A DNA stretch of 64,000 nt from an uncultured Mesorhizobium sp. Lineage in GTDB: Bacteria > Pseudomonadota > Alphaproteobacteria > Rhizobiales > Rhizobiaceae. Positions 8,061 through 59,948 of the stretch are shown here, in pieces (the stretch's first letter is position 1; every line of letters begins with the position of its first letter). The stretch covers positions 772 to 64,771 of the forward strand of contig CAZROU010000024.1 in NCBI GenBank assembly GCA_964601795.1, given 5' to 3'. The notes under the pieces are model-generated. The model did no database searches. It saw only the letters and a list, made by a program, of their open reading frames with translations, and had not been told where the DNA came from. A program made the translations under genes and the position numbers.

Positions 8061-8234
8061 GCGCGGTCCTTGTGATCTACCCGCCACGGTCGAATCCGCA
8101 GCAACAGCGGCTTTATAGACGATTGTCGCATGGGAGCGCGACGAAAATACCGGGGAGAATCGGCTCTGTCCAAAGGCAGCGCTTGCGGGGCCAGTGCGCG
8201 CGCCCTATAGCACCCGCCAGAGATGGTCCAGCCG

Positions 8235-9194
8235 ATGACAGACACCTACCTGCCAATCTACCCGCACCGCCACTTGCTTGGCATAAGAGACCTTTCCCCG
8301 ACAGATATAGAGACATTGCTGGAACGCGCCGACCGCGCGGTAGCGATTTCGCGTCAATCGGAAAAGAAAACGTCGACGCTGCGCGGACGCACGCAGATCA
8401 ACCTGTTCTACGAGGCATCGACCCGCACGCAGTCCTCTTTCGAGCTTGCCGGCAAACGCCTCGGCGCCGATGTCATGAACATGTCGGTGGCAAGTTCGTC
8501 GGTCAAAAAAGGCGAAACGCTGATCGACACGGCGATGACCTTGAACGCCATGCGCCCCGACATCCTCATCATTCGCCATCAATCCGCAGGCGCTGCGGCA
8601 CTGCTGGCCCAGAAAGTCGGCTGCTCTGTGGTCAACGCCGGCGACGGCACGCACGAACACCCGACACAGGCTTTGCTAGACGCACTGACCATCCGCCGCG
8701 CCAAGGGTCCGCTGTCGAAACTCATAGTGGCGATATGCGGCGACATCCTGCATTCGCGCGTGGCGCGCTCAAATATCATTTTGCTGAACGCGCTTGGTGC
8801 GCAGGTAAGGGTCGTTGCCCCGTCCACGCTTTTGCCATCCGGAATCGAGCGCATGGGTGTGATCGTGGCCCGTTCGATGTCTGAAGGTCTGAAAGACGCC
8901 GACGTCGTGATGATGCTGCGCCTGCAGCGCGAGCGCATGGCCGGTAGCTTTGTCCCGTCGGTGCGTGAGTATTTCCGCTACTTCGGCCTCGACGCCGAAA
9001 AGCTGAAGGCGGCCAAGGACGATGCGCTGGTGATGCACCCCGGGCCGATGAACAGGGGCGTGGAAATCGCCTCGGAAATCGCGGACGGGCCGCAGAGCGT
9101 GATCCAGGAACAGGTCGAGATGGGTGTTGCCGTGCGCATGGCGGCGATGGAAGCGCTGCTCGACCCGCGCCGCAACCCCGAGGGGCGCGGCTGA
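8235..9194 (+). CDS. pyrB: Aspartate carbamoyltransferase catalytic subunit
   Basis: [31 protein letters not shown]. Confidence 0.97.
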
Positions 9195-12657: not shown

Positions 12658-12869
12658 TGCATTATCCGATACCGCTGGATTTTATTAGTGCCAGATATAG
12701 GCAGGCAGTCAAGCGAGGTCGCTGCTCTAAGTCTCTAATTCCAGAGAGCTCAAAAGGATACTCTGGGGTTCCAACGGCAAGACAAATAGTCTTGGATACG
12801 CGGGAATTAGGGATTGGCGATATTCCCCCTAATCCTGGCGCCGCTCTCGATCCCGCAGTTTAATGACGC

Positions 12870-13310
12870 CTAATCTGGGGCTTGGTAACCACCTCGCTCC
12901 AATGCGGCCTGCACCTCGCGCGGCATGTAGTTTTCGTCATGCTTTGCCAAAACAGTGGCAGCTTCAAAGGTGCCGTCACGCATCTGCCCTTCTGCCACCA
13001 CACCCTGTCCTTCGCGAAAAAGGTCCGGCAAGATGCCGTGATAAGAAACGGGCAACGACTCCGTCCCGTCCGTGACGCGGAAGGCGACCTGCAAGCCGTC
13101 TGCCGATCGGGTAATCGAACCTTCCTCAACCATGCCGCCCAGTCTGATCTGCATTCCTTCCGCAACCGCGCCGGTGGCGATTTCAGTCGGAGAGCGGAAA
13201 AAAACGATGTCATCACGAAGCGCGCTTAGCACCAGCGTCGCCGAAACACCAAGCACCAAGCCAGCCGCACCGAGGATCAGAAGGCGCTTCGATTTCCTGC
13301 TACGAGCCAA
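12870..13310 (-). CDS. ccmE: Cytochrome c maturation heme chaperone CcmE
   Basis: IRLGGMV, GILPDLFREGQGVV, LAKHDENYMP (HxxxY heme-binding motif). Confidence 0.96.
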   Translation of the reverse strand: MARSRKSKRLLILGAAGLVLGVSATLVLSALRDDIVFFRSPTEIATGAVAEGMQIRLGGMVEEGSITRSADGLQVAFRVTDGTESLPVSYHGILPDLFREGQGVVAEGQMRDGTFEAATVLAKHDENYMPREVQAALERGGYQAPD

Positions 13311-13311
13311 A

Positions 13312-14601
13312 TCAACTCACCTTTCTCGCAAACGGGAGTTGCAAGTCCCGCCAGACATCGGCCAGACCCGACACGAGGTCGTCGATCATCTGATCGGTGT
13401 GGAAGGGTGACGTCGTGATTCGCAGGCGCTCGCTGCCACATGGCACCGTCGGGTAGTTGATCGGCTGGACGTAGATCGAATGTCGATCGAACAATAGATC
13501 GCAGACGGTCTTGCAACGGGCGGCATCTCCGACGATCACCGGCACAATGTGGCTTTGCGCGTCGAGTATCGGGATGCGCTCCTCGCGCAGGCGCGCGCGC
13601 AGTTTACGCACGTTGGCGTGCATCTTTTCGCGTTCAGCATCGCTGGCCCGCAGGTGCCGGATGCTTGCCGCTGCGCCTGCTGCAACCGCCGGCGGCAGCG
13701 CGGAGGTGAAGATGAAGCCGTTCGCATGGCTGCGGATGGCATCGATCACAACGGCCGAACCAGCAACATAACCGCCGACGACACCAAAGGCCTTGGCAAG
13801 CGTGCCCTGAACAAGATCAATGCGGTGGGCCAGCCCGTCGCGTTCGGCCACACCCGCCCCTGTCGGGCCATACATGCCTACGGCATGGACCTCGTCGAGA
13901 TAGGTCATGGCGCCATAACGCTGGCATAGGTCCACGATTTCGCGGATCGGTGCGATGTCTCCATCCATCGAATAGACGGATTCGAAGGCGACCACCTTGC
14001 AGCGATGCTTGGGAATGGAGCGCAGGATTTCCTCCAGATGCAGCATGTCGTTGTGCTGGAAGACGCGCTTCTCGGCACGGCTGGCGCTGATACCCTGGAT
14101 CATGGAAGCATGGTTGAGTTGGTCGGATATAAGGATGCAGTTGGGCAGGAGACGGCCCAAAGCCGCCAGCGTCGAGAGATTGGCGAGATAGCCGCAGCCG
14201 AATACGAGAGCGGCCTCCTTGCCGTGGAGCGCCGCAAGCTCATTTTCCAGTTCGATGATAGGCGAGTGGTTTCCAGAAATGTTGCGGGTGCCACCGGCCC
14301 CTGCCCCATAGACGTCTACAGCATCATGCATGGCGGCGCGCACGGCAGGATGCTGGCCCATGCCGAGATAGTCGTTCGAGCACCAGACGGTGACGACGCG
14401 CTCGCCCTCGGCAGTCACGGCGACCGACAGGGGAAATTCGCCGACGATGCGCCGGTGCTCCTGAAAGACCCGGTAGCGACCTTCCTGCTTCAATTCCAGC
14501 AACGACATATGGAGCAGTCCATCATAGTCAGGACCAACGCCCCATGAAGCGTATGCGGGCCGGTCATCTCTTACGGGCGTCTCGCCTAAGCGACGTTCCA
14601 T
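13312..14601 (-). CDS. hemA: 5-aminolevulinate synthase (ALAS, PLP-dependent)
   Basis: [51 protein letters not shown]; start 14601 follows AGGAG (alternative 14628). Confidence 0.93.
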
Positions 14602-14730
14602 ATCCTTGCTCCTAGGTCGTGAACTCATAAATCTGGTCGAAATGGTGTGAGGCCATCTGTTCGGATACGCGGAGAAAGAGCGCAGGAAATGTCATTCATT
14701 TTCAAGCTCTTTCGACAAAATAGCCGGGCA

Positions 14731-14804
14731 GATGGACCACATCCGAAGGACGCCGGAACGGCTGCAAGCTGCCGCGTCGAACCGCTCGGCCGATGGTCCA
14801 CATC
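14731..14804. promoter_or_regulatory. 13-bp near-perfect direct repeat GATGG(A/T)CCACATC upstream of hemA; candidate regulator sites
   Basis: GATGGACCACATC at 14731-14743 and GATGGTCCACATC at 14792-14804, 61 bp apart, in the ccmI-hemA gap. Confidence 0.5.
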
Positions 14805-14876
14805 GCCCTTCGCGCTTCTCCTTGCATCTTTTTGCCGTTCCAGGCGCCATTTCGATCACATTTATGAGTCCACGAC

Positions 14877-15839
14877 CTAGTTCTGCGGCTGGGCCTGGTC
14901 GTGCTGGGGAATATCGATGCGGGCAAGAAGCGTGCGGACCGCTTCCGCCGCCTGCGGGTTGTCGGCAACCATGGGCTCCAACGCGCGCAACTCCTTTCGG
15001 GCGACGTCGAGTTGGCCTTTCCGGATCAAGAACAGGCTGTGATACCAGCGTGCCTCGGCGAGGTTCGGTTGCGCGGCCAGAAGATCGGACAGCATCTTTT
15101 CGGCGCGGTCGAGGTGAGCCTGGTCGGTGCCTGCCAATGCGGCATCGACAAATGCGAGCCTGACTTGAGGGTCTTCGGGGAATTTTGCTGCCGCCTTGTC
15201 GAGCAGCGCTTCGCTTTCGGCCTCGCGGCCCAGAACGCGGTAGCTGCGCAACAGCATCGCGACATCATCGGGCGAATAGTCATCGCTTGCGATGCGCCCT
15301 TCCAGCCGCGCCACCATTGCACCGATGTCAGGCACGCCATCGGCGCCCATCGGCATTCCGGCAGGCACGCCCGCGGCATCGCCCGCGTCGGCCACAGGCG
15401 GCGTGTCGCCGTGCGGCGAACGCGTCATGTCGATATCGCTCATCGAGGCAAAGCTATGGACGCCGTAGGCTGCTGCGACGACAAACCCGACGATCAGCGC
15501 AACTGTCCACCAGCGCTCGCTGCGTGGCGTTGACGGATAGGTCGGTGTCAAGGCGCCGCGCACCTCCCGCAGTCGCGAAAGCGCGTGCTCAGCTTCGCCG
15601 GCAAGCCGGGTTGCGATCGAAGAATGCTGCGCAGTATCGACGCGCCCTTCGGCAAGCGCCAGATCGTTGTCGCGTAGCTGGCCCGTCAGCCGGTCCTTTT
15701 CCTCCTGCCAGCGCCGCACAGGGCTGGCGTCCTCCAAGCCTGTGCCGAGCGGAAGACTGGCGCCCTTGCGCAACAACGGACTAACGATGATGACCACGGC
15801 AGCAGCGCAAAGCAGGAATGCGATCAGCGATGTGGTCAT
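14877..15839 (-). CDS. ccmI: CcmI/CycH-like TPR cytochrome c maturation protein
   Basis: N-terminal TM, coiled segment, second TM, MVARLEGRI and TPR-like C-terminus; position in ccm cluster. Confidence 0.75.
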   Translation of the reverse strand: MTTSLIAFLLCAAAVVIIVSPLLRKGASLPLGTGLEDASPVRRWQEEKDRLTGQLRDNDLALAEGRVDTAQHSSIATRLAGEAEHALSRLREVRGALTPTYPSTPRSERWWTVALIVGFVVAAAYGVHSFASMSDIDMTRSPHGDTPPVADAGDAAGVPAGMPMGADGVPDIGAMVARLEGRIASDDYSPDDVAMLLRSYRVLGREAESEALLDKAAAKFPEDPQVRLAFVDAALAGTDQAHLDRAEKMLSDLLAAQPNLAEARWYHSLFLIRKGQLDVARKELRALEPMVADNPQAAEAVRTLLARIDIPQHDQAQPQN

Positions 15840-16294
15840 AGTTCCAGTCTCCGCAGTTGTTGTTCGTTTAGCGGTTCAAGGGTGTTGGCTTCCTCGTGCG
15901 CGTGCGTAGCCCTATCGGCGCTGCGGCGCACGAGAAGCAGATAGGCCGCCCCGGCCAGCAGAAGCAGCACCGGCGGCACTGTCCAGATGATGCCGCCAAA
16001 GCCGGCAACGGGCGGCGACAGAAGCACGTAGTCACCGTAGCGGCTTCGGAAATACTCGACGATCTCGCCTTCGGTACGCCCCTGCGCAAGCTGTTCGCGC
16101 AACATGACGATCATTTCGCGCGCCGTTCCCGATTGCGAATCGAGGATGTTCTCGCTTTGACAGACCGGGCATCGCAGCTTGGCGCCGATGTCGCGCACTT
16201 GCGTTTCCACCGGGGACTCCGTCTGGAACGGCGCTGCCACTGCCGATATCGTCATGGCAAGAGCGAAAGCGAGAGCCGCCGCATATCGCCTCAT
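15836..16294 (-). CDS. ccmH: CcmH/CycL cytochrome c maturation protein
   Basis: LRCPVCQSENI...YFRSRYGDYVLLSPP. Confidence 0.93.
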   Translation of the reverse strand: MRRYAAALAFALAMTISAVAAPFQTESPVETQVRDIGAKLRCPVCQSENILDSQSGTAREMIVMLREQLAQGRTEGEIVEYFRSRYGDYVLLSPPVAGFGGIIWTVPPVLLLLAGAAYLLLVRRSADRATHAHEEANTLEPLNEQQLRRLEL

Positions 16295-16851
16295 CGCACC
16301 GCTCCGATCAGCTTCAAGTTCTGTTCGATCGCCTGTGGCGTCAAAGGTCCAACCTGACGCGCCTGTACGACCCCTTCTGCATCGACAAAGAAGGTTTCAG
16401 GCATGCCGTAGACACCGAAATCGATGCCAAGCCGCCCACGCTTGTCCTGCCCTGACGGATAAGGAAAATGCCCTTGGCGGTCGAGGAACTGTGCTGCTGC
16501 GACCGGGCTGTCACGATAGTTGATGCCGACGATATCGAACTCGTCAAACAGGTCCGCGCGGTCGCCAAGCGGGACCAGCAGCGGATGCTCCTCGCGGCAG
16601 GACACGCACCACGACGCCCAGAAATTGATGACCAGCGGCTTTCCAAGCAGCTTTTCGGACGCCACCTGTTCGCTGCCGTTCAGCGGTTCCAGGGAAAAGG
16701 TTGGAAGCGAGCGCCCCACAATCATTGACGGGATAAAGGACGGGTCCTTGGTAAGCCCGATGCCAAGCAGCAACGGAATGACGACCACGGCAGCGCCGAG
16801 CAGCCATTTCCAGCGCGGTATGGGACGCTTTTGTGAAGCGAGCATCGTCAT
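16291..16851 (-). CDS. ccmG: CcmG/DsbE thiol:disulfide oxidoreductase
   Basis: INFWASWCVSCREEH, FGVYGMPETF. Confidence 0.93.
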   Translation of the reverse strand: MTMLASQKRPIPRWKWLLGAAVVVIPLLLGIGLTKDPSFIPSMIVGRSLPTFSLEPLNGSEQVASEKLLGKPLVINFWASWCVSCREEHPLLVPLGDRADLFDEFDIVGINYRDSPVAAAQFLDRQGHFPYPSGQDKRGRLGIDFGVYGMPETFFVDAEGVVQARQVGPLTPQAIEQNLKLIGAVR

Positions 16852-18857
16852 TCGGCCGGCACTCCCCTTGCCGGCGGAGCAGCCGCCGGTGCCGAGCGCT
16901 CGGCCCTGCGCCTGCTCGTACCGGACAGCGACAGAAGCGAACCGCAGGCAACGATCACCCAGCCGGCCCAGATCCAGTTCACCAGCGGATTCCAGTAACC
17001 GCGTATGGTCACTCCACCCTGCTGCGTCTCTTCACCGATGATCATGTAAAGGTCGCCGCTGAAAGAAGAGCGGATGGCGATCTCGGTCGTTGCCATTGAA
17101 CGCACGGTGTAGAAGCGCTTTTCCGGCTGCATCTCGTAAAGCGGCTTGCCGTCACGCGCGACACTCAAGATGGCCGCGCGGCCCTGGTAGTTGGAGCCGC
17201 TGGCGTCCGACACTTCGCGCAACGTGATGACATTGCCTGCGAGTTCAAAGCTGTCACCGGGCTTCAGCGAAACCGTTACCGCCGTCTGGAACAGACCGGA
17301 GGCGATCATGCCAGCCCCGATGAGGGCGATGCCGAGATGGACTATGAGACCGCCGAAACGCTGGCGCCCAAGCGAAAGAACGTTGCGCGCAGCCCGCGGC
17401 CAGGATTCGCCGGTAACGCGGCGGCGCGCATATATTCCGGTACCGATGTCGGCCAGCGTCGCCGAGAAGGCGAAGGCCACTGCCGCGATGGCGCTCAGTG
17501 TCAGCAGATCGCGCACGCCAGCAATCAGCGCAATACCGACGGCCAACGATCCACCGACAAGCGGCTTGCGCAACATTGCCGACAGACGCCGCGCATCGAC
17601 CTTGCGCCAAGGGATCGACGGACCGATGCCGAGCAGGAAGACCACCGCCAGCATCAAAGGCACGACGACCTTGTTGAAGTAAGGTGCGCCGACGCTCAAC
17701 CGCTCGCCCGATACCGCCTCGACGAACAGCGGATAAAGCGTGCCTAGAAAAACGGTTGCTGCCGCAAAAAGCAGCAGCACATTGTTGGCGAGGATCGCGC
17801 TTTCACGCGAATACGGGCTTTCGACCAGCGCATCCGACAACAGCCGGTCGGAGCGGAACAGGATAAGCCCGTAGCCGAATACCATCGTCACCGTGAGGAA
17901 GCCCAGCATGTAGGCCCCTCGCCCCGGGTCAACCGCAAAGGCATGGACGGAAGTCAGAACGCCGGAACGGACTAGGAAAGTGCCGATAAGGGTGAGCAGG
18001 AATGTCGTTACAACAAGGAAGACGTTCCAGGTGCGGAACAGGCCGCGCTTGTCCTGCGCCATCATCGAATGCAGCAGCGCCGTACCCGTCAGCCACGGCA
18101 TCAGCGAGGCATTCTCTACCGGGTCCCAGGCCCAATAACCGCCCCAGCCCAGCTCATAATAGGCCCAGAAGCCACCCATCAGGATGCCGCTGGTTAGCAT
18201 CGTCCAGGCGAACAGCGTCCAGCGCCGCACGGCACGAACCCATTCGGCGCCGGAATGTGTGCGGATCAGCGAAGCGACAGCAAAAGCGAACGGAACGGCA
18301 AAGCCGACATAGCCGAGATAAAGCACCGGCGGATGGAAGACGAGCCCAGGATCCTGCAGCAGCGGATTGAGGTCCTGACCGTCGGGAAGCGCCGGCGTCA
18401 TGGTCAGGAACGGATTGGACAGGAAAACAATGAACGCAAGGAAGCCGAACTGGATCGCGCCCAGCGTGGCGATGATCCACGGCATCGACAGCGGATGATC
18501 TTTCCAGTGCACCTTCACCGCAATCGCCGACAGCAGCACCAGATAGAACAGCCACAGCATCAGCGAGCCTTCATGCGCGCCCCACATGGCCGTCAGGCGG
18601 TAGATCATCGGCAATTGCGAATTGCTGTTCTGCGCCACGTAGGCGACCGAATAGTCGAGCGTGGCGAACGACCAGATAAGCGTCGCGCATCCGAAAGCGA
18701 CCAGCACCAGATTGGCGAAAAGCGCATTGCGCGCTGCACGCAACCAGGCCGGCGAGGAGCGCAGGGACGCCAACGTTGCTCCAGCGACCGCCGCCACGCT
18801 GAGCACGAGCGCAAGCGAGGTTGCAAGCTGGCCAAGCTTGATAAGGGACTCAACCAT
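16848..18857 (-). CDS. ccmF: Heme lyase CcmF/NrfE family
   Basis: WGAHEGS, LNPLLQ, HPPVLYLGY, WGGYWAWDPVENAS (WWD domain), SVHAFA; start 18857 overlaps the regulator stop. Confidence 0.95.
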   Translation of the reverse strand: MVESLIKLGQLATSLALVLSVAAVAGATLASLRSSPAWLRAARNALFANLVLVAFGCATLIWSFATLDYSVAYVAQNSNSQLPMIYRLTAMWGAHEGSLMLWLFYLVLLSAIAVKVHWKDHPLSMPWIIATLGAIQFGFLAFIVFLSNPFLTMTPALPDGQDLNPLLQDPGLVFHPPVLYLGYVGFAVPFAFAVASLIRTHSGAEWVRAVRRWTLFAWTMLTSGILMGGFWAYYELGWGGYWAWDPVENASLMPWLTGTALLHSMMAQDKRGLFRTWNVFLVVTTFLLTLIGTFLVRSGVLTSVHAFAVDPGRGAYMLGFLTVTMVFGYGLILFRSDRLLSDALVESPYSRESAILANNVLLLFAAATVFLGTLYPLFVEAVSGERLSVGAPYFNKVVVPLMLAVVFLLGIGPSIPWRKVDARRLSAMLRKPLVGGSLAVGIALIAGVRDLLTLSAIAAVAFAFSATLADIGTGIYARRRVTGESWPRAARNVLSLGRQRFGGLIVHLGIALIGAGMIASGLFQTAVTVSLKPGDSFELAGNVITLREVSDASGSNYQGRAAILSVARDGKPLYEMQPEKRFYTVRSMATTEIAIRSSFSGDLYMIIGEETQQGGVTIRGYWNPLVNWIWAGWVIVACGSLLSLSGTSRRRAERSAPAAAPPARGVPAE

Positions 18858-20352
18858 CCGCCGCTCCCCTGCCGCCAACTGCCACGATATCCGCGATGCG
18901 GGCAGTCGCGATCCTGATGCTCTTTTCTGAAAGGGCTGCATAACCAAACAGCAGCGTATCTTTCGCACGGGGGTTGTCCGGGGTGATGAACGCACCTCCG
19001 GAACCCGGCACGTAGATGCCAACCCCGCGCTCTGCGGCGCGCCGCTCTATGTCGCGCGTGTCCCCGAAGCGCGATGGCAAACGTAGCGACAGGTGCATGC
19101 CGCCGCGCATACCCTTGAACTCGCACCCTTCGAAAGTCGGCATCAACGTTTCGACCAGTACGTCGCGGCGCGCTTTATAGATCGCGCGGATGCGCCTCAA
19201 ATGGCGCATGAAGCCACCGCTGTTCATGAACTCGGCCATCGCCGATTGCTCAAGCCAGGGATTGCCGTTGCTGGTCAGGGATTTCCATTCGCGCAACGCG
19301 CGCGCCAGCGCCGGCGGCGCCACGATGAAGCCCAGTCTCAAGCCCGCCGCCAGCGACTTCGAGAATGTACCGAGATAAAGCACCCGCCCTCGGCAATCGA
19401 GCCCGCGCAGCGCCGTCAGCGGCGCGCCTTCATAGCGGAAGTCGCCGTCGTAATCGTCTTCGATCACATAACTGTCGGTGCGCGCCGCCCATTCGAGCAA
19501 AGCCAGGCGCCGTTCCAGTGACAGCGTCACGCCAAGCGGATATTGGTGCGACGGGGTGACATAGAGCAGGTTGCGCCTGGTTTCAGGCAATCGCGAAACA
19601 TCGATGCCGTCCTGATCGACAGGAACGGGAACCGGTTTGAAGCCGCAGCTTTCGAACAGGAAGCGGGAGCCTTGATAACAAGGGTCTTCGTGGACGAAGT
19701 ATTTCGCGTAGCCGCTCAGGGTGCGGGCTATGAGATCCAGCCCGTCCTGTGAACCGTTGACCACGACGATATCATCGGGCTTCGCCGCAACCCCGCGCGA
19801 CGGACCGATGTGGTCGGCAATGCCTTGCCTGAGCTCGGGCAGGCCCTGCGGGTCCTGGTACTCGGCGAACCGCGCCCCGCCATAGCGCACCTTGGCGTCG
19901 AGTATCCTGCGCCACTCGTTGACGGGAAAGGTCGAGGCGTCGACGCGCCCGATCCAGAAATCATGCTCGAACCTGCCACGGTTCGGGCTGATGACCGTCT
20001 GGGCCCTCACCCGGCTCGACAGCGGGTGGATGTCGCCATTGTTGTCGTTAGCCTGAAATTCTTCGCCGCCTGAGCCACGCAGCGTGATCGACATGCCATT
20101 TTCCGGCAGGCTCGAACTGACAAAGGTGCCTACATTGGGACGGCTTTCGATATAACCTTCGCTCAGCAACTGTTCGTAAGCGAGCATGACTGTATTGCGC
20201 GACACGCCGAGCTGTTCGCTCAACGCGCGTGATGCCGGTACCGGATCCCCGCTTCGCAGCTTGTTTTCCAGGATCAGTCCCCTGATCTGATCAAACAATT
20301 GACGCTGCAACGTGCGGGAATCACTCGGATTGATCGTCAATACGACCTGCAT
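18850..20352 (-). CDS. MocR/GabR family PLP-dependent transcriptional regulator
   Basis: GntR wHTH (PASRALSEQLGVSRNTV) plus aminotransferase-like domain (YVTPSHQYPLG, IEDDYD, GTFSKSL with PLP Lys). Confidence 0.95.
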   Translation of the reverse strand: MQVVLTINPSDSRTLQRQLFDQIRGLILENKLRSGDPVPASRALSEQLGVSRNTVMLAYEQLLSEGYIESRPNVGTFVSSSLPENGMSITLRGSGGEEFQANDNNGDIHPLSSRVRAQTVISPNRGRFEHDFWIGRVDASTFPVNEWRRILDAKVRYGGARFAEYQDPQGLPELRQGIADHIGPSRGVAAKPDDIVVVNGSQDGLDLIARTLSGYAKYFVHEDPCYQGSRFLFESCGFKPVPVPVDQDGIDVSRLPETRRNLLYVTPSHQYPLGVTLSLERRLALLEWAARTDSYVIEDDYDGDFRYEGAPLTALRGLDCRGRVLYLGTFSKSLAAGLRLGFIVAPPALARALREWKSLTSNGNPWLEQSAMAEFMNSGGFMRHLRRIRAIYKARRDVLVETLMPTFEGCEFKGMRGGMHLSLRLPSRFGDTRDIERRAAERGVGIYVPGSGGAFITPDNPRAKDTLLFGYAALSEKSIRIATARIADIVAVGGRGAADG

Positions 20353-20398
20353 CGCGAGCCCTCCCTGGTCTCATAGGCTAGCTGAAATTCCAGCAGTG

Positions 20399-20409
20399 CA
20401 TGGTACCAC
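20399..20409. promoter_or_regulatory. CATGGTACCAC (palindromic TGGTACCA core) upstream of the MocR gene
   Basis: Matches CATGGAACCAC upstream of haoA at 10 of 11 positions. Confidence 0.4.
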
Positions 20410-20466
20410 AGGAGAAAAATTTACTGATGCCGGTTGAGTCCGGTTCAGGTCTTGCGGGCCAAGGCA

Positions 20467-21483
20467 TTAGCCAGCGCGCACCGCGGCAATCCGATAAACC
20501 CAATAGCCGCCGTTCTGGTAGACGAGGGTCGCGTCCGGAACCTGCCCGATCTGGGCGGAATTGAACGGCAACAACTGGCCAAGCAGCGAGGATTTGCCGG
20601 CGCTATCTGCAAGGTAGTAGGCGCGCACGGCGTTTTCATCGCGCGGGATCACCGCATAGGCGGCAAAGCCCTCATCCTTCACCCAGGTCTTCACCAGTTT
20701 GGTGACGTCGTGAACATCGCTGGCGCCGGGAAAATCGCGCAGGCCGACGGAAAACCGATCAGGCGCTGCCACGCCGATGTCGAAGGCATCACGCACATGC
20801 AAGACGACATAGCTTTCCTGTGTATCCGCCATCACCTGAAGGCGGGCGACACCATATTTGTCTTCAGCCCCGAGTGCATCAAGGAAAGCGGCATATTTTT
20901 CATCTGCCTGACTGTCGGGCGGAGCCCGCCACTGCCTTTCCGTTTCGACTATCGCCTCCTTCGAGCCGACCCAGACGTCAGGAGAACGCAGCGTGGCGCT
21001 GTCGTCGGCTCCCGCCAGCGGGAACCGGGCAAGCACAAGCGCCGCCAGTCTTTGCGACAAGCCGGGCATGGCAAAAACGAGGCTGTCCACCGGCAAATGC
21101 GCCTTCAACGCCTGCGCCAGCTTCAGGTCTTCCTCGACGGAAATATCCGAACGAAGAACCGGCTCACCGATTTCGCTCTTCCAGCCAATGATGAGGCCCG
21201 GTTGTCCTTGTCGCTCCAGAACCTCGCCGCTGACAAGCAACTTGCCTGTATCGGCAGTCTTGAGGCTGACGGACTTCAGCGTCGCGTCGGGTAACATCTG
21301 CGCGAGAGCACGGCTGGTCTCGCCCGGCTTTTCGACATCCTTCAACTCGTAGACATAAGGCGTCGGACGCTTTTCCACCTGAAACGCATAGGCGGTCAGC
21401 AGGCCGCCAGACACCAGCATCGCAGCACCAATCCCGGCAACGAGGCCGGGAGTGGTTCCTATCTTGGAGAGTTTCATCATCAT
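20467..21483 (-). CDS. haoB: HaoB (hao-associated Orf2) family protein
   Basis: Immediately downstream of haoA; single N-terminal TM; C-terminal LLPF...LVYQNGGYWVYRI resembles HaoB as I recall it. Confidence 0.75.
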   Translation of the reverse strand: MMMKLSKIGTTPGLVAGIGAAMLVSGGLLTAYAFQVEKRPTPYVYELKDVEKPGETSRALAQMLPDATLKSVSLKTADTGKLLVSGEVLERQGQPGLIIGWKSEIGEPVLRSDISVEEDLKLAQALKAHLPVDSLVFAMPGLSQRLAALVLARFPLAGADDSATLRSPDVWVGSKEAIVETERQWRAPPDSQADEKYAAFLDALGAEDKYGVARLQVMADTQESYVVLHVRDAFDIGVAAPDRFSVGLRDFPGASDVHDVTKLVKTWVKDEGFAAYAVIPRDENAVRAYYLADSAGKSSLLGQLLPFNSAQIGQVPDATLVYQNGGYWVYRIAAVRAG

Positions 21484-21498
21484 CTCCCCTTTGCGTGA

Positions 21499-23202
21499 CT
21501 AGTCGCGACGGCGGCGGCGGAAGGCCGGCAGGAGCATGAGACCAAGCCCGAGCCCGGCGAGCGTGACACCCGCACCCCCGGCTGCCGCACGCTTCATCGG
21601 CGTGTCGAGGTCCAGCCAGCCTTGCTTGCCTCCTGCGGCTTCAAGAGCTTCCACCCGCTGCATGAGCGCAGCCTTCTCACGCAGTTGCGTGTCGGTGTCC
21701 TTGATGCGCGCCAGGCTGCGGATCAGGCGTGACCAGCCTTCCGAATAGGTGAAGCCACCGGGATGCACATGGGCAAGGCCCTTGAAGTGCTTCATGACGT
21801 GCTGCTCCCACATTTCCGCGAACTCATAGTCGATCGCGGTCGGGAAGTTGCCAGCCGAGAAGAACAGCCCGGCAAAGGCACCCGCGCTGTCGGCGTCAGG
21901 CTTGGGAGGAGCCGGACGGTTGGTTGTCTGGCCAACAAGGAGCTTGTCCTCATAAAGCTTGTTCATGACGCCGCGAGCTTCTTTAACCAGCTCGATGCCC
22001 TGCTTGGTGCCGTTGTCCATCATATCGAGATAGGAGCGGGCAAAGGCCGGCGAGTGGCAGTTCGAACAAGTCTGTATCCAGGATTCCTTGCGGTCGGAGA
22101 ACCATTCGTGGTCGAGATTGTCGGCAATCTCCGGCTTCGGCTCGAAGCCCCAGCGAACCTTGCGCACGAGGTTGTGGCCATATTCTCCGTTGAATTCCAT
22201 GTGGCAGGTCTGGCATGTCGGGCCGGTTTGGCCACCTTCGCCAAGCGCGGCCGCCAGCGGCTTTTCCCAATCCCACGAAGCGCCCTGCGTCTTGTAGACG
22301 ACTCCGTGCTTGGACAGGCTGAACGCCTCGAACTCGTTATGGTCGACGCCATTGTGGCAAGTCGAGCAGGCTTCGGGCTTGCGCGCCTCGGCAGCGGAGA
22401 ATTCGTGGCGGGTATGGCAGGAATTGCAAGTGTTCTGCATTGTGTGGCAGAGCGAGCAGCCATCGGCCACTTCGCGCTGCGCCATGCCTGCCCAGATCGC
22501 GGTTTCCACATTGGCCTGCCATGAGAGCGCATGAGAAGGCCGGCCGGCAGGCCATTGGTCTTGCGGCCAGGTTATGGTGTCGCGCTCGGATTCGCGTTCG
22601 GCAAACTGCTGCACATGGCACTGACCGCAATTGGCTGCATCCGGCATGTGGAGGTCGGCCTTGTGGTTTCCGGCCTGCTTGCCGATGCCCATGTGGCAAT
22701 CGATACAGCCGACATCGCCAAGCTTCTGGCCTTCAGGCAGCACGCCCATCGAATGAAGATTCGCCTCGACCTGGTCGATCAGTTCCTTCTTATAGGCGCG
22801 GGAATCTTCAGCCGGCAGGTTGCGGATTTCGTTGAGGTCGCCATGGACGCTCTTCTGCCAGGAATGGACCCAGCCCGGCGTCACGCTAGTATGGCATTCC
22901 ACGCATTCGTCGCGCTTGGCTTCGAAATCCATGTCGGGCGCGATGTAAAGTGTCTTCGGATCGAGATAGCGCGTAAAGGGGGTCGGCTCCCAAAGTTCAC
23001 CGAACGCGCCCTTTCCATGCCCTTGCTTGGGATCGTGGTAGCGCTTGACCAGCGCATCGTAGAGCTCCTTGGGGGAAGCTTCCTTGGTCAGGCCGAGCGC
23101 CGTGTAGGTCTCATCCGGGATATCCGCCCGCGCCGGCAAGGCAAAAAGGAGCAAGACCGAGCAGAACAACCCGAGCAGCAGGTGAAACAGATGGCGTGGC
23201 AT
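21499..23202 (-). CDS. haoA: Octaheme hydroxylamine oxidoreductase (HAO) family cytochrome c
   Basis: Signal peptide; 8 CxxCH (CVECH, CIDCH, CGQCH, CSLCH, CNSCH, CSTCH, CQTCH, CSNCH); WPAGRPSHAL, TRHEFSAAEARKPEA, GVDHN, GLAHVHPGGFTYSEGW; C-terminal TM with basic tail. Confidence 0.93.
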   Translation of the reverse strand: MPRHLFHLLLGLFCSVLLLFALPARADIPDETYTALGLTKEASPKELYDALVKRYHDPKQGHGKGAFGELWEPTPFTRYLDPKTLYIAPDMDFEAKRDECVECHTSVTPGWVHSWQKSVHGDLNEIRNLPAEDSRAYKKELIDQVEANLHSMGVLPEGQKLGDVGCIDCHMGIGKQAGNHKADLHMPDAANCGQCHVQQFAERESERDTITWPQDQWPAGRPSHALSWQANVETAIWAGMAQREVADGCSLCHTMQNTCNSCHTRHEFSAAEARKPEACSTCHNGVDHNEFEAFSLSKHGVVYKTQGASWDWEKPLAAALGEGGQTGPTCQTCHMEFNGEYGHNLVRKVRWGFEPKPEIADNLDHEWFSDRKESWIQTCSNCHSPAFARSYLDMMDNGTKQGIELVKEARGVMNKLYEDKLLVGQTTNRPAPPKPDADSAGAFAGLFFSAGNFPTAIDYEFAEMWEQHVMKHFKGLAHVHPGGFTYSEGWSRLIRSLARIKDTDTQLREKAALMQRVEALEAAGGKQGWLDLDTPMKRAAAGGAGVTLAGLGLGLMLLPAFRRRRRD

Positions 23203-23285
23203 GTCGATCCCCCGATCCGGCTTTCCGATCACGCCTCAAACTTGCACAACCTCCAAACAAGCGTAGGTCCATCGGGGGCAAAAGC

Positions 23286-23296
23286 CATGGAACCAC
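23286..23296. promoter_or_regulatory. CATGGAACCAC upstream of haoA; candidate regulator site
   Basis: Shared with the motifs upstream of the MocR gene and hemA. Confidence 0.4.
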
Positions 23297-23425
23297 TAAA
23301 AGCAGGCTGACGCCCAATGATGCATTTTTCAGATGAAATTCTATTCCGTAGCTGCTTGGCCGGCGTCAGCGCTGCGTTGGCAATAGCGGACAGCAAGTCG
23401 ATCCGGCCCGCGTTTCGTGCCCCGC

Positions 23426-23581
23426 CTATGGTGCCAAGAGATCGAGGTAGAAGATGTTTGCTGGCTGTCGTCCAATTGCCATGACGATGCCGATCAGCAG
23501 CAGTGCATAAAATATCGACAAGCTGGGCAAAATGAGCCTGCCGGGTAAATATCTGGCAAGCAGGCGATAGGTAGGGGTCAT
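23426..23581 (-). CDS. 51-aa single-TM peptide, DltX-like acyl-shuttle candidate
   Basis: ATG overlaps MBOAT stop (TAATG); MTPTYRLLARYLPGRLILPSLSIFYALLLIGIVMAIGRQPANIFYLDLLAP. Confidence 0.65.
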   Translation of the reverse strand: MTPTYRLLARYLPGRLILPSLSIFYALLLIGIVMAIGRQPANIFYLDLLAP

Positions 23582-24663
23582 TAAAAATTCTCCAACGTCA
23601 TAGTGATGACGGGTCGTGCCAGCGAGAGCCAAGCTAGCACGACAAGCGGGCCTGAGGCTCGTAACAGGCCGTCAGGTAGCTTGGGCATGCCGGGACGGGA
23701 CAGGAGATTCTGCACCAAGCGGGTCAGGATGAGGCCAAGTGCTTGCCAGCCCGACCATAACAAGTAGTAGGCTGACGCCTCATGCCATAATCCGATTGCT
23801 GCCATGGCAGCGAACACGCCCAGCACCGGAGAGCGTGTGATCGCAGTTACAGGCTGGAAAACATAGTCCCGGCACCATTGCGACAGGGTGATATGCCAGC
23901 GCGACCAGAAGTCGATAAGGTTGCGCGCCAGATAAGGACGGTTGAAATTTTCTTCCAACCGTAGCCCCAGCATCAGTGAGAGCCCAAGGGCGGTCGAACT
24001 GAACCCGGCAAAGATGAAGTAGAGCGCCATCCAGTCCAGGATCGAGGCACACCATTGCGCCAAAAAAGGATTCGCGGGAAAATTGCTTTGCTTGATCAGC
24101 AGGTCAATATTCTTGACCAACCAATTACCCAGCAAGAGCGCCTGCGCCAGCCCCAAAAGCACCCGCTCGGCGCCAGCTGCAATTTCGGAGACATCGTTTC
24201 TTCGCCGCGCCAACTGTCGCTCGAAATTCTGGAAGCGGTGGATAGGACCAGCCACGATGACCGGCAAGAACAACTGGTAGCGCAAGATCCGGCCCAAGCC
24301 GGGATTTGCGAGCCGGCCCATCCACCAATCGAACAGCAGGTGGAGGTTGCGCAAGGTGAAATAGGCTGCACCCACCCAAAGAAATAAGGTCGTGCCACGT
24401 GACAGCAACAGCGCAAATATCAATATGGCTGCCCATAGGGACGTGACCAGATCACGCCTGCCGCTGCGTTCGCCTACTACCATGGCGACCCAAGTCAGGC
24501 TGGAAGATCCCACTAGCCAGATGGCTGAGAGCGGAGAGAGTACAAATACTGTACAGGCGGTGACAATTGCCACAGCACCGGCAAATTGAGCGGCCGGCAT
24601 CAGTCTCGTGATCGGCACGAGAGCCAAGGACGCTATCAACAGGAAAAGCAGCTCCAGGGTCAC
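23581..24663 (-). CDS. MBOAT family O-acyltransferase (DltB/AlgI-like)
   Basis: AGPIHR, ENFNRPYLARNLIDFWSRWHITLSQW, GLWH catalytic His; GTG 24663 overlaps the upstream stop. Confidence 0.92.
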   Translation of the reverse strand: MTLELLFLLIASLALVPITRLMPAAQFAGAVAIVTACTVFVLSPLSAIWLVGSSSLTWVAMVVGERSGRRDLVTSLWAAILIFALLLSRGTTLFLWVGAAYFTLRNLHLLFDWWMGRLANPGLGRILRYQLFLPVIVAGPIHRFQNFERQLARRRNDVSEIAAGAERVLLGLAQALLLGNWLVKNIDLLIKQSNFPANPFLAQWCASILDWMALYFIFAGFSSTALGLSLMLGLRLEENFNRPYLARNLIDFWSRWHITLSQWCRDYVFQPVTAITRSPVLGVFAAMAAIGLWHEASAYYLLWSGWQALGLILTRLVQNLLSRPGMPKLPDGLLRASGPLVVLAWLSLARPVITMTLENF

Positions 24664-25511
24664 CGGCGCTTCCACCACCACGTGGTTAGTTCTTCCTGGA
24701 ATCGGAGGGCGCCGGCACGGTTCAAATGAGCCTGATCATTGAAGAACCGATCCGGCCATGCGAATTCGGGTTGGAACAACCGCACTCCCAACTCCTCGGC
24801 CAAGATTGCGAAGTGCTCCTGCGCCAGCAGCGCGGCTTGCCTGCCAATATAGCTCGCCGCAGTCGCCGAACGTGGCGGAACACTCAACACTATCTCGATG
24901 CCCTGCTCCTGGGCCTTGGCAATTAGCCGCCGCAGGCGCCCAGTCTCACGCGGTGCTCGCAGGAAGAGTGGATAGAGCCTCGCCAAGTCATCGGCGTCGA
25001 CGTGGAACCGTTGGTCAAGGGGCGCCGAGCTTGTCATTTTTTGGACGATCGAAGCGGCTCCGCCTAGCCCGGCAACCAAAACCCTGAAGCCGCGTCGGGC
25101 CTCCGCGGAAAACTGTCGCAACTCGTTGAATGGCATCAGGATGGAGGCTGCCCACGAATCCTGCGCCTGCCTTTGAAAAGCGAAATCAAACGCGATGGGA
25201 TTGATCTCGACCAGAACTAGCTCGGTCGGTCTTTTCAATACGAGACTCAAGAGGTCAAGCGTCTGAGCTTCGTCAATTCCACTTATGGCAAAGCGGACGT
25301 AGGTTAGTCGATCATCTACAGGCCACTTGGCGGGACTCTGCTCGGGGAAAGCGTGAAGCATCAGTGAAGAACCGATGATGACAACGGGAGCCTGCGGCAA
25401 CCGATCGGGCTCGGACCACCACTGCCTTTCGAAGCGAGCAAGTCCAACCAGGACTAGTACCGCAAATGCGATAGCCATCAGCCAAGCCAGAAGAACGGCG
25501 CGGGAATTCAT
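24660..25511 (-). CDS. Membrane-anchored SGNH-like protein (DltD/AlgJ-like)
   Basis: N-terminal TM, IIGSS, C-terminal DQAHLN (DxxH); adjacent to MBOAT. Confidence 0.7.
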   Translation of the reverse strand: MNSRAVLLAWLMAIAFAVLVLVGLARFERQWWSEPDRLPQAPVVIIGSSLMLHAFPEQSPAKWPVDDRLTYVRFAISGIDEAQTLDLLSLVLKRPTELVLVEINPIAFDFAFQRQAQDSWAASILMPFNELRQFSAEARRGFRVLVAGLGGAASIVQKMTSSAPLDQRFHVDADDLARLYPLFLRAPRETGRLRRLIAKAQEQGIEIVLSVPPRSATAASYIGRQAALLAQEHFAILAEELGVRLFQPEFAWPDRFFNDQAHLNRAGALRFQEELTTWWWKRR

Positions 25512-27316
25512 CGAAGACCGGTTTTAACCGCATCGATCAGGTCGGCCAGCGATCGGATCGCAGCCGTTCTGGAAGCTGGAACCCGAATGCCGAAACGCTC
25601 CTCGACAGCAAAAATCAGTGCAATCTGGCTAAAGGAGTCCCAACCGCTTACACTTTCGGGTGTAGAAGCGACGCCAAGAGTGGCCGGGGTAACGCGGAAC
25701 ACGCCACTGGCGATCTCGATAACATCCTTCGCAACGTCATCTGTCTTCGTTTCGGCCTGAGTGACATCCTTCTTGAGCGCTGCAATGACTGCAGCGCGCA
25801 GTGCCTCCAAATCCGGCTTGCCTGATATTCCTCGGGGAATCTCAGATAGCGCAACGATATGTTTGGGCACTTTCAATGCCTCGAGTCGCTCACGAGCAAA
25901 GGCTGCAAGTTCGGCTTCATTAGCAGTTCCATCGAGGATCACGGCTGTTATCGCGATCTCGTCGAACGTATCGTCCGGCATGGAAAGCGTGACTGCTTGC
26001 GCGACAGCCGGATGACCGACCATGACCTCGTCTATTTCTTCGGGCCGAATAAGGAAGCCACCGCTCATTATGACGGTCTTCAACCGGCCTGCGATAGCAA
26101 AAGACCCATCCGGCAATATCCGAGCCAGGTCACCGGTACGCATCCAGCCATCCGGAGTGAACGTATCCTGTGTGCGGCCGTCGTCTTGCCAGTAACCTGG
26201 AAAGACATTGTCGCCGCGCAATTGCAGTTCACCCACCCCTTCATCATCTGTCGCCTCGGGATCGAGGCGGGCGGTACAGTCCACGGGCCGTCCGATCGTT
26301 CCTCGCGCGCCCATTTCTGGACGCGGACCGGCGTAGAGAGCGCTCGCCACCGTTTCGGTTAGGCCATACTGGTTAAAGAGGGGGCGTCGAAAGCGGGTTT
26401 CCAGTCGTGACCAAAGGCCGGCATCCAATCGAGCCGCCACGGACATAAGACAACGGCACTCGGGCGCATCGAAGTAGTCGTCGTGCTGGCCGAAACGGTC
26501 AATCATGGACCACACGGTGGGCACGGTAATCACATGGCTCGCGTGCTCGTGCCGCACACGATTCAGCCAAGTCTCCATTCCCGGCACACTGAACCCGCCG
26601 GAACGAATCACGGCACAACCCGATGCGAGTGCGAGTATCGGGCCCTGGATCATCCCATCGGCGTGAGCAAGAACCATGTCGTTGAAGATGCGAGACTGGC
26701 GACCGCAGCCGAAAAGCCGGCGCAACGTGGTCAAATTGGCCAGCAGATTTCGCCGCGTGACCTTTACGCCCGTCGGCGCTTTTGTCGTTCCAGATGTAAA
26801 CAGCACATAGGCGAGATCATCCGGTGCATCAGGCAGCCGTGGTTCTCGGCCTGCCTCTGGGAGTTCCAACAAATCGGCCAGACGAATGCCTTCAGACCCC
26901 TGCCCCCGCGCAAGAAACCAACTACTCCGTTTCGCAACGGGCTTCGCAGATACTTTGAGCACCTGCAAATCACGGACCCAGCCTTCGATACAGCGCTCGT
27001 CGTCCAAGATCGCCCATTGCGGCGCAACGGAGGCTGCAATACCTGCCACGCGGTGCGGTGAGGAATCGGCTGCGAGGACAACTGGAACCAGTCCATCAAG
27101 CAGCGCGGCAACAAATGCAGCGATAGTCAATGTCTCGTTTCTGGTCACGATCAGGATGCGTTCGCCCATCGTTAGACCGGTGCGGTCAAAGGCACTAAAA
27201 AAACGACGCAGAAGCTCGGCAAGGCCGCCGTAATCCAATCGCAGTTCAGGCGTAACCAGGAATTCCGCAGATGACCGCTCTACGATCCGTTCCCAAATCT
27301 CGGCAAGAGTCAGCAT
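25508..27316 (-). CDS. AMP-binding adenylation enzyme fused to C-terminal acyl carrier domain
   Basis: YVLFTSGTTKAPTG, QYGLTET, RTGDL, SGKPD; C-terminal GWDSFSQIALIFAVEERF phosphopantetheine-site motif. Confidence 0.88.
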   Translation of the reverse strand: MLTLAEIWERIVERSSAEFLVTPELRLDYGGLAELLRRFFSAFDRTGLTMGERILIVTRNETLTIAAFVAALLDGLVPVVLAADSSPHRVAGIAASVAPQWAILDDERCIEGWVRDLQVLKVSAKPVAKRSSWFLARGQGSEGIRLADLLELPEAGREPRLPDAPDDLAYVLFTSGTTKAPTGVKVTRRNLLANLTTLRRLFGCGRQSRIFNDMVLAHADGMIQGPILALASGCAVIRSGGFSVPGMETWLNRVRHEHASHVITVPTVWSMIDRFGQHDDYFDAPECRCLMSVAARLDAGLWSRLETRFRRPLFNQYGLTETVASALYAGPRPEMGARGTIGRPVDCTARLDPEATDDEGVGELQLRGDNVFPGYWQDDGRTQDTFTPDGWMRTGDLARILPDGSFAIAGRLKTVIMSGGFLIRPEEIDEVMVGHPAVAQAVTLSMPDDTFDEIAITAVILDGTANEAELAAFARERLEALKVPKHIVALSEIPRGISGKPDLEALRAAVIAALKKDVTQAETKTDDVAKDVIEIASGVFRVTPATLGVASTPESVSGWDSFSQIALIFAVEERFGIRVPASRTAAIRSLADLIDAVKTGLR

Positions 27317-27317
27317 C

Positions 27318-27968
27318 TCACTCGCCATCCTCGATGTGCAGGGACGACCTTGCCGCATGAAAGGGGCGTTTGGTTGCCGGGTTGCCGACGACCAAGGTGT
27401 TCTCGGGCACGTGCCGGCGCACGACGGAACCCGCCGCAACGATTGCTTGGGCACCGATGCGGATATCGGGCAGGATGACTGCTCCCGCACCGATCATGGC
27501 TCCAGCCCCAACATGGATGTTTCCGGCGAGCGTGGCGCCCGGTCCAACGCTGACGTGATCTTGCAAAACTGAATGGTGACCAATCGAGGCTGCCCTGTTG
27601 ATGAGCACGCCCTCACCGATAATGGAGACGGCTCCAATGACCACCCCTGCATTGATGAAGGTTCCATCGCCGACGCGAACTGAACTGGCCATAACGGCAG
27701 TTGGGTCGATCAAGGCGTGGGCCAAGGTCAAGCCGGCTTCGCGCCCCATAGCAATAAGTTGTGCGCGACGTGCAGGCGTGAACGCACAGGCTACGAATGC
27801 ATCCTGGACTTCTTTTGACCTGAGATCCGCAAGCTCTACGATACGGTCTCGGGCCAGAAGTCTCGGCGTTCCATTGACATTTACAGCCAACGAAATCGCA
27901 ATACCCAACCGCCTGCAGGTTTCCTCATATTCGACAACGATCGGGGAACGAACACCAAAGAGGATCAT
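27318..27968 (-). CDS. NeuD/PglD-family hexapeptide-repeat sugar acetyltransferase
   Basis: MILFG N-terminus, LIDPTAV, INRAASIGHH, hexapeptide repeats, VVGNPA. Confidence 0.85.
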   Translation of the reverse strand: MILFGVRSPIVVEYEETCRRLGIAISLAVNVNGTPRLLARDRIVELADLRSKEVQDAFVACAFTPARRAQLIAMGREAGLTLAHALIDPTAVMASSVRVGDGTFINAGVVIGAVSIIGEGVLINRAASIGHHSVLQDHVSVGPGATLAGNIHVGAGAMIGAGAVILPDIRIGAQAIVAAGSVVRRHVPENTLVVGNPATKRPFHAARSSLHIEDGE

Positions 27969-28193
27969 GAGTTTTTTTACTCGTCCCTTGGCCTGCGGCG
28001 CAAAGACCGCAGCGCGGAAGGCTGTGCATTCGCTAATGATGCCTTGGGCGAGTATCCCCTCGCTTGGTCCGGTCGGTCCGTTACAAATTATTGCCTCTTG
28101 CACCCAATCGCATCAACAATTCCTGCCATGCCGTTGGCATCTGGGCAATATCCTTTGCTATGCGCTGGACGCCAAAATAATGGGAAGACGATT

Positions 28194-28268
28194 TGGTGAG
28201 CCGGGAGGGGATCGAACCCTCGACCACATGATTAAAAGTCACGTGCTCTACCGCTGAGCTACCGGCCC
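28194..28268 (-). tRNA. tRNA-Lys (anticodon UUU)
   Basis: Reverse complement GGGCCGGTAGCTCAGCGGTAGAGCACGTGACTTTTAATCATGTGGTCGAGGGTTCGATCCCCTCCCGGCTCACCA: cloverleaf, TTT anticodon, CCA end. Confidence 0.96.
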
Positions 28269-57697: not shown

Positions 57698-57710
57698 GTC
57701 TGGTGCCCGT

Positions 57711-58604: not shown

Positions 58605-58614
58605 CTTTATACCC

Positions 58615-59673: not shown

Positions 59674-59738
59674 TGTTCACCTGTGTTCTCGACGCTGCGT
59701 GTCGACTGATTTTGCGGCGCCTATGCCGACGACGACTA

Positions 59739-59948
59739 CTACTTGTTGAGGATGAGTTTCCCCTGCCGGGTAATCTTCAGCCGGTAGAGCGCACCGTGAT
59801 GCTCGATGCCAATTTCGTGCTCACCCTGGAACAGGCTGTTGCTTGAAAGCGTCCTGACGGAGAACGGAGCGCGTTCAACCCGGACCGGTGTCGCCTGGTC
59901 CGGGCGGCGGAAGCGGTAGCGAAAGTCGTTGGGAGTATGAGCATTCAT
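59739..59948 (-). CDS. hmuP: Hemin uptake protein HemP/HmuP
   Basis: IEHHGALYRLKITRQGKLILNK. Confidence 0.93.
   Translation of the reverse strand: MNAHTPNDFRYRFRRPDQATPVRVERAPFSVRTLSSNSLFQGEHEIGIEHHGALYRLKITRQGKLILNK

Follow-up and report, generated by a model that had tools for sequence, protein, structure and literature searches.

The window, i.e. the whole stretch of 64,000 nucleotides from an uncultured Mesorhizobium sp. (contig CAZROU010000024.1) analysed here, carries nine co-oriented open reading frames (ORFs), haoA-haoB-mocR-ccmFGHI-hemA-ccmE, at positions 12870-23295 of the minus strand in a Mesorhizobium-like genome. We consider it probable that the regulator MocR senses hydroxylamine by its bound pyridoxal phosphate (PLP) and activates the oxidation of hydroxylamine to NO, so that the cassette would act as an inducible periplasmic scrubber of hydroxylamine from other cells. 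As judged by comparison of the loci, haoAB together with one MocR subfamily is the constant core of this system.

In the proposed mechanism hydroxylamine would react with the lysine-bound PLP of the regulator to form an oxime, as it does with GabR in vitro. The regulator would then activate haoAB from a 24-bp direct repeat beside the -35 element, a site located by comparison, and would also tune its own mocR-ccmFGHI-hemA-ccmE unit. The extra haem lyase, haem chaperone and 5-aminolevulinate (ALA) synthase could add capacity for the 24 haems of an HaoA trimer, on top of the CcmABCD proteins of the host. HaoA would oxidise NH2OH at its P460 haem, with NO as the product by analogy, and the electrons would pass to host cytochromes c because no c554/cM552 is present. 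NO would finally be removed by host enzymes, for which a candidate is described below. As all eight haem motifs of HaoA are ordinary CxxCH motifs, capacity and not an odd motif is the likely reason for the dedicated haem-lyase set.

The closest solved structure to HaoA is the hydroxylamine oxidoreductase (HAO) of Nitrosomonas europaea (E 5.5e-190), with anammox and reductive HAOs at E 6e-49 or worse. In the alignment to the N. europaea enzyme, Y496 corresponds to Y467 and D297/H298 to D267/H268, which we take to be the P460 cross-link residue and the distal residues at haem 4, respectively. The tyrosine equivalent to Y496 is retained in all close HaoA relatives. The cross-link tyrosine is tied to oxidative catalysis in HAOs (PMC8042395; here and below, statements cited by PMC number refer to the parts of the papers that were available). 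Eight CxxCH motifs and the cross-link tyrosine identify HaoA as an HAO of the oxidative type, for which NH2OH activity is predicted, and the presence of this tyrosine rules out identity with the reductive enzymes epsilon-Hao and HAOr. The initial annotation had named a grouping with reductive octahaem proteins as the outcome that would speak against it; HaoA instead falls into a methanotroph-type clade (12 rows, 97% support in the SH-like approximate likelihood-ratio test, SH-aLRT, rooted quick tree). The locus shares with this type the occurrence of haoAB without cycAB and the RW[AG]FxP loop. At the active-site loop, the tyrosine of the nitrifier motif ANYP (Y334 of the mature protein) is replaced, HaoA having GFEP, and so it is in all cycAB-less relatives and in pMMO (particulate methane monooxygenase)-bearing genomes. 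A search of the window genome with CycA and CycB of a betaproteobacterial locus (L021) gave no match to cycA or cycB, and a search for cytochrome P460 gave no match anywhere, controls included.

The argument for a switch comes from the DNA 5' of haoA. A direct repeat, YGGNNCCA-N16-YGGNNCTW, is located there in 32 of the 35 regulator-linked loci, while 0.14 would be expected from shuffles, and the 24-bp period of its boxes is the same in 31 regulator-linked loci. It was recovered in 21 of the 24 loci that had been left out when the motif was spotted, and in none of nine regulator-less loci (one truncated), and it is absent from regulator-less nitrifier loci. In the window the operator sits exactly where the likeness to relatives starts. 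With the motif fixed beforehand, 20 of 36 haoA-bearing genomes from the genus of the pMMO-bearing alphaproteobacterium G375 were searched (pmoA was tested in G375 only). Regulator and operator occurred together in 8 and were both missing in the other 12, so that they agreed in all 20. In the order of G757, which comprises pMMO-bearing gammaproteobacterial methanotrophs, the regulator was found in 0 of 16 long loci and the operator in 0 of 28 short loci. Kinship inflates these counts, yet such an agreement between regulator and operator would hardly arise unless the one bound the other directly.

Across 26 thinned loci a -10-like signal accompanies the operator: downstream of box 2 one fixed position has a T in 21 loci, and two more have an A in 16 and 14 loci. 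This fixed distance would place box 2 against the -35 element, which is the usual position of an activator. Box pairs with the 24-bp period also occur 5' of mocR in 15 of 34 loci and suggest autoregulation; the window strain has no full pair at this place. The strict pattern matches five sites in the window genome. Of these, four are located outside the cassette and resemble coding or mobile DNA on visual inspection, and no wider regulon is claimed. That the cassette has a regulator of its own, as proposed earlier, agrees with the position of the regulator beside haoA and with the operator in the regulator-linked loci.

The regulator consists of a GntR winged helix-turn-helix (wHTH) fused to a class I aminotransferase domain with a PLP lysine, which places it in the MocR/GabR family, and this lysine is present in 55 of 55 aligned regulator rows. 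The residues that bind the carboxylate in GabR, R207 and R430 (PMC11669113), are changed to Gly and mostly Ala in these regulators, which fits a small non-carboxylate ligand. The trigger of GabR is an external aldimine, and hydroxylamine turns its internal aldimine into an oxime in vitro (50 mM, overnight; PMC11669113). A single-sequence fold of the regulator (pLDDT, the predicted local distance difference test score, of 34) was not used.

This regulator is not exclusive to hao: 15 matches above 390 bits occur in haoA-less genomes of the order draw (n=401), and the hao-less regulators nest among the hao-linked ones in the tree. At 20 loci of sister regulators the neighbours were an unassigned Mo-Fe-S oxidoreductase (6), a pyrroloquinoline quinone (PQQ) dehydrogenase with a YiiM-type MOSC protein (2), a BisC/TorA-type reductase with a cytochrome (2), a nirS cluster (1), ccm-hemA without hao (1) and hao genes (1). 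YiiM and BisC reduce N-hydroxy compounds. The neighbours thus favour an N-O compound as ligand, hydroxylamine being a candidate. At six of the loci (L105, L106, L108, L109, L110, L111) the sister MocR is divergent to an Fe4S4 oxidoreductase of the molybdenum bis(pyranopterin guanine dinucleotide) type, with the same operator between both genes; these loci are a candidate reductive hydroxylamine or N-oxide system. In two others (L103 2261-6759, L112 2221-6717) a PQQ alcohol dehydrogenase gene, with the YiiM-type MOSC gene behind it, is divergent to the sister MocR, and in L103 an EptA-type phosphoethanolamine transferase (6803-8632), below all MCR cut-offs, adjoins the regulator. L121 (5040-11501), with mocR-ccmF-ccmG-ccmH-ccmI-hemA but no haoAB, has the appearance of a cassette that decayed or was split.

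Within the stretches at hand, ccmF is found in 16 of the 35 regulator-linked loci and ccmF with hemA and ccmE in 5, so the maturation genes are optional, and the term “self-provisioning” chosen in the initial annotation is too strong. The bundling of ccmF/G/H/I, ccmE and hemA stands; ccmABCD and cycA/cycB are absent, and hemA covers the first step of haem synthesis only. Without ccmABCD the system I of the cassette is incomplete. The single ccmB of the host lies on contig C10, away from the cassette, and housekeeping copies of hemA, ccmE, ccmF, ccmG and ccmH are present elsewhere in the genome. CcmF scores above the cut-off of one subfamily model for NrfE (432 vs 394) and fails stricter NrfE and NrfF models. 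In three betaproteobacterial loci (L019, L020, L021) ccmE/F/G and apparently ccmA-C adjoin hao, hinting at a need of HAO for system I maturation in hosts that presumably use another system otherwise.

A MocR match stands beside haoA in 24 of 26 genome loci, both misses being cut by contig ends. The cassette is uncommon: it was found in 2 of 37 genomes of the genus, the window genome included, in 9 of 401 genomes of the order (one a partial match), 5 of 400 of a gammaproteobacterial draw and 10 of 301 of a Burkholderiales-type draw, the centre genome being counted in both of the latter. The amoA/pmoA family (PF02461) had no match in the window genome, while the same search was positive in G375. 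It was missing from 34 of 35 haoA-bearing genome entries (two appear to be one genome; completeness is stated for 10), and as two nitrifier-like assemblies also lack it, its absence in metagenome bins is a weak argument. The absence is firm in two nearly closed genomes with haoAB-cycA-cycB-mocR-ccm-hemA, namely G083 (98% complete in one contig) and G435 (99% complete in 4 contigs); a search for AmoC had no positive control. Loci with the full set of haoAB-cycA-cycB, regulator and ccm-hemA in nearly closed Rhizobiales genomes without amoA/pmoA are L046 (11522-14428) and L047 (11739-14844). Data sets holding half or more of the searched DNA words came from five studies (wastewater, a bioanode, two of sludge and one of an organism), three possible source runs being excluded. 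Alleles related to the haoA, haoB, mocR, ccm and hemA genes of the cassette were present in contigs from four RNA libraries (in one case, 62 of 1613 bases differed). They were not used as support, because such contigs show neither transcription nor strand nor level and DNA may be present.

The HaoA trees are quick trees: rows below 400 aa, L023 included, were left out of the first one, and later ones contain 30 and 23 of 50 rows, trimmed to 545 aa. Most terminal clades are common to the regulator and HaoA trees. The regulator-less HaoAs, from betaproteobacterial amoA-bearing and gammaproteobacterial pMMO-bearing genomes, do not form one group (p-AU, approximately unbiased test, 1e-48). Nitrifier-type HaoA is sister to the haoAB-cycAB-mocR loci of Polaromonas- and Rhodocyclales-like bins (99%). 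The rooted tree was built under a simple model with long outgroups, and it contains no rows from comammox bacteria, Nitrosococcus or Verrucomicrobia. It rejects a root on the nitrifier branch (p-AU 0.009), leaves a placement on the nitrifier-plus-sister branch borderline (p 0.054) and does not reject a root on the branch of the gammaproteobacterial methanotrophs (p 0.27). The sister relation of betaproteobacterial nitrifier hao to amo-less haoAB-cycAB-mocR loci is suggestive only as an evolutionary reading. A wider proposal, which we put forward tentatively and regard as doubtful in its entirety, is that a proteobacterial guild without ammonia monooxygenase, widespread though scattered, runs a hydroxylamine-inducible HAO regulon, some members with haoAB-cycAB, and takes up the poison leaked by nitrifiers together with its electrons. 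Betaproteobacterial ammonia oxidisers would have obtained hao from there and lost the regulator, and MocR would be the first dedicated hydroxylamine sensor, present in methanotrophs as well.

Several points weigh against hydroxylamine sensing and scrubbing as we propose it. The reading is drawn from sequence comparison, and the counts of operator and regulator are overstated as related genomes are not independent. The conditions used for GabR, 50 mM overnight, are no proof of sensing at natural levels. The regulator scores above the NCBIfam cut-off for PdxR (NF052282, 437 vs 320). Of the sister loci, two have urea transporters and the others a flavin reductase or nothing recognisable beside the regulator, so the ligand need not be hydroxylamine. 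In the genus of G375 the 12 methanotroph genomes without regulator and operator retain haoAB. Among six COX1-family matches in the host there is no canonical NorB, and with no electron acceptor encoded, the NO formed could take the place of hydroxylamine as a poison. Two nirK genes as well as aa3 and cbb3 oxidases are present in the host; hcp and clade I nosZ were not found in it. One of the six COX1-family matches, a ba3-like haem-copper oxidase near nnrS and a Crp/Fnr gene (L127 848-4012, host contig C32) has its active-site tyrosine replaced, which we take to be a mark of eNOR-type NO reductases, and is possibly such an enzyme. In one relative the cassette abuts nnrS, and in L059 (6217-8290) a COX2 and COX1 haem-copper oxidase pair, which we would liken to the sNOR of nitrifiers, follows directly after mocR.

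The same genes could serve energy metabolism, with electrons from nitrifier-leaked hydroxylamine fed to oxidases (lithoheterotrophy) and detoxification as a side benefit. The large investment in haem supply and the aa3 and cbb3 oxidases of the host would agree with this, and it is most plausible for the haoAB-cycAB-mocR relatives; amo-less genomes with this set include G083 and G435. In the Nitrosomonas model for CycA, with its cut-off of 400, the CycA of L021 reaches a score of 355. The window cassette lacks cycAB, however, its spread in the genus is patchy, and its HaoA groups with methanotroph enzymes, for which a detoxifying role was proposed in Methylocystis (PMC3794950); we consider this use unlikely here. 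Somewhat more unlikely still, in our judgement, is another carbonyl-reactive or N-O compound as signal and substrate, such as hydrazine, N-alkylhydroxylamines, oximes, hydroxamates or N-hydroxylated bases, free hydroxylamine then being at most a breakdown product. HAOs do oxidise hydrazine in vitro (PMC8042395), the sister regulators adjoin S/N-oxide and N-hydroxy reductase families, and the loop GFEP departs from the nitrifier ANYP. Yet methanotroph HaoA has the same loop, the flanks of the cassettes examined contain no conserved transporter, hydrolase or oxime enzyme, and in pMMO-bearing bacteria, for which ammonia-derived hydroxylamine is the known problem, haoAB has the same regulator and operator.

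A PdxR-like gauge, by which the regulator would read the loss of PLP caused by hydroxylamine and not the oxime, or would merely control HemA and the ccm genes, could account for the match to the PdxR model, the best PDB match (a PdxR/GabR-type protein) and the PLP-dependent hemA downstream. We hold it to be very improbable, as the operator precedes haoA also in loci that lack hemA and ccm and models of PdxR are broad; pdxST was not seen in the flanks examined, no genome-wide search for it having been made. Hardly any weight is left for the second step of heterotrophic nitrification, which the initial annotation had considered and in which the cell itself would make hydroxylamine from ammonia. 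An oxidative HAO, nirK and the wastewater habitat are compatible with it, as is direct ammonia oxidation (dirammox) under another MocR, DnfR, as far as described in the source available. The lack of any amoA/pmoA family match in a 99.98% complete genome speaks against it. No AurF-like di-iron oxygenase was found in the host either, a weak negative since we presume that DnfA belongs to that family. Scrubbing of external hydroxylamine under control of MocR is the reading that we retain as the probable one.

The ORFs were confirmed in the order and families given in the initial annotation, with the overlapping stop and start codons described there (Table 1): overlaps of 4 nt join ccmF/G, G/H and H/I, mocR and ccmF overlap by 8 nt with the ccmF start at ATG 18857, and hemA and ccmE are 1 nt apart. 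Profiles matched HaoA (PF13447, E 1e-147), HaoB (TIGR04392, 263 bits vs a cut-off of 200), GntR with aminotransferase (MocR), CcmF, DsbE/CcmG, CcmH, a CcmI-like tetratricopeptide repeat (TPR) protein, ALA synthase (TIGR01821) and CcmE. The start of haoA is corrected to ATG 23202 as the most likely one (567 aa), and that of hemA to ATG 14601. The HaoA proteins of two named Mesorhizobium records share 98% and 93% identity with that of the window, and since the nucleotide likeness to their cassettes spans window positions 23294 to about 12875, the bounds proposed earlier are right.

Table 1. Features of the hao cassette and its insertion in the window.
Feature	Position	Strand	Basis or remark
Predicted operator of MocR: direct repeat, two 8-bp boxes 24 bp apart, box 2 abutting the predicted -35	23264..23295	-	sequence comparison; binding inferred
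Predicted -10 of the haoAB promoter, weak match in the window strain	23237..23244	-	fixed-position T/A across 26 loci
haoA, octahaem hydroxylamine oxidoreductase, oxidative type; signal peptide and C-terminal membrane anchor	21499..23202	-	anchor and peptide read from sequence
haoB (orf2)	20467..21483	-	TIGR04392 above cut-off
Operator-like boxes 5' of mocR, one direct and one inverted	20366..20408	-	predicted autoregulation of mocR-ccm-hemA-ccmE
MocR/GabR-family regulator, PLP lysine K332	18850..20352	-	profile matches, alignment
ccmF paralogue (haem lyase)	16848..18857	-	profile matches
ccmG/dsbE paralogue	16291..16851	-	profile matches
ccmH paralogue	15836..16294	-	profile matches
ccmI/cycH-like TPR protein	14877..15839	-	below PF23914 cut-off; position of the TPR gene of R. 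pomeroyi
263-bp miniature inverted-repeat element, non-coding, TA duplication, between ccmI and hemA	14615..14877	.	in window strain only
hemA, second 5-aminolevulinate synthase of the genome	13312..14601	-	profile matches
ccmE paralogue (haem chaperone)	12870..13310	-	profile matches
15.5-kb insertion at the 3' end of tRNA-Lys (28194-28268): cassette and acyl cluster	12726..28193	.	empty site in G061, G062

The claim of a portable unit is supported by synteny, by a copy on the megaplasmid of Ruegeria pomeroyi and by the empty sites in relatives. In two close Mesorhizobium genomes (G061, G062) the site between dprA and tRNA-Lys is empty and the cassette is located elsewhere, with flanks differing in each. 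The insertion also contains a surface-acylation cluster (23581-28103; MBOAT, an unassigned 283-aa protein, an acyl-CoA ligase with carrier domain, a NeuD-type acetyltransferase), which is unrelated to the cassette and missing from the empty site of the relatives; among its four scanned genes there was no integrase. The miniature element spares both the stop codon of ccmI and the ribosome site of hemA, and contigs join across it. Four more full copies (98-99%) and many partial copies at contig ends are present in the genome, and related genomes contain it too. A haem uptake cluster (ABC transporter, haem-binding protein, TonB receptor; from ORF sequences only) lies about 30 kb from the cassette at 55794-63808.

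In nitrification the routes to NO and N2O branch off at hydroxylamine, and hao serves as a nitrifier marker. If our reading is true, a regulated HAO would make non-nitrifiers an overlooked sink of hydroxylamine and a source of NO/N2O in sludge, soil and sea, and its genes would cause organisms to be wrongly called nitrifiers. The regulator-operator pair provides a handle on hao switching outside nitrifiers and could be made into a genetically encoded hydroxylamine reporter; the switch would also control HAO in some methane oxidisers, and the amo-less haoAB-cycAB-mocR loci bear on the origin of the nitrifier hao cluster. The cassette is real, mobile and not unique to the window genome; it is of value for the regulator-operator pair and for the amo-less HAO radiation. 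New is the operator that tracks the regulator. The occurrence of hao in non-nitrifiers, including S. pomeroyi, was already published (PMC2802487), as was haoAB in Comamonas and Burkholderiales bins (PMC8061750). In the open-access literature searched we found no description of the cassette, regulator or operator, nor of the hao neighbours in R. pomeroyi, and for MocR and hydroxylamine nothing beyond papers on dirammox and unrelated subjects; a description could stand in supplements or in subscription papers on the evolution of the hao cluster.

Compared to known systems, the architecture, for which the initial annotation knew of no description, recurs in R. pomeroyi (Silicibacter) DSS-3, where the same nine genes in the same order, with 74% identical HaoA and the operator, are plasmid-borne and followed by genes for a truncated haemoglobin and a cbb3 oxidase. 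With B. subtilis GabR, B. clausii PdxR and Alcaligenes DnfR the regulator has in common the wHTH, the PLP domain and paired boxes with a long spacer; it differs in the box, the 24-bp period, the lack of the GabR carboxylate site and HAO as its target. DnfR, compared by description and not by sequence, has the site GGTCTG-N17-GGTCTG and also acts in hydroxylamine metabolism (PMC13689441). The HAO of N. europaea (PDB 1fgj, 4fas, 6m0p), encoded in hao-orf2-cycA-cycB, is alike in eight CxxCH motifs, cross-link tyrosine, distal Asp/His, anchor and adjoining haoB. Here, in contrast to the ammonia-oxidiser cluster, there is a single copy without cycAB or amo, the loop tyrosine is replaced, and regulator and operator are added that nitrifier-type loci lack. 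The dedicated haem-lyase set NrfEFG of E. coli likewise places ccmF/H/I paralogues beside a multihaem enzyme; the cassette differs in the ordinary CxxCH motifs of its enzyme and in the presence of hemA and ccmE. The haoAB of methanotrophs (e.g. Methylocystis sp. SC2) also has no cycAB, the same loop type and the same HaoA clade, and in 8 of 20 genomes of one pMMO-bearing genus the same regulator and operator. The window genome has no pMMO, so that no internal source of hydroxylamine is evident, and it bundles with haoAB the ccm and hemA genes that those methanotroph loci do not have beside them.

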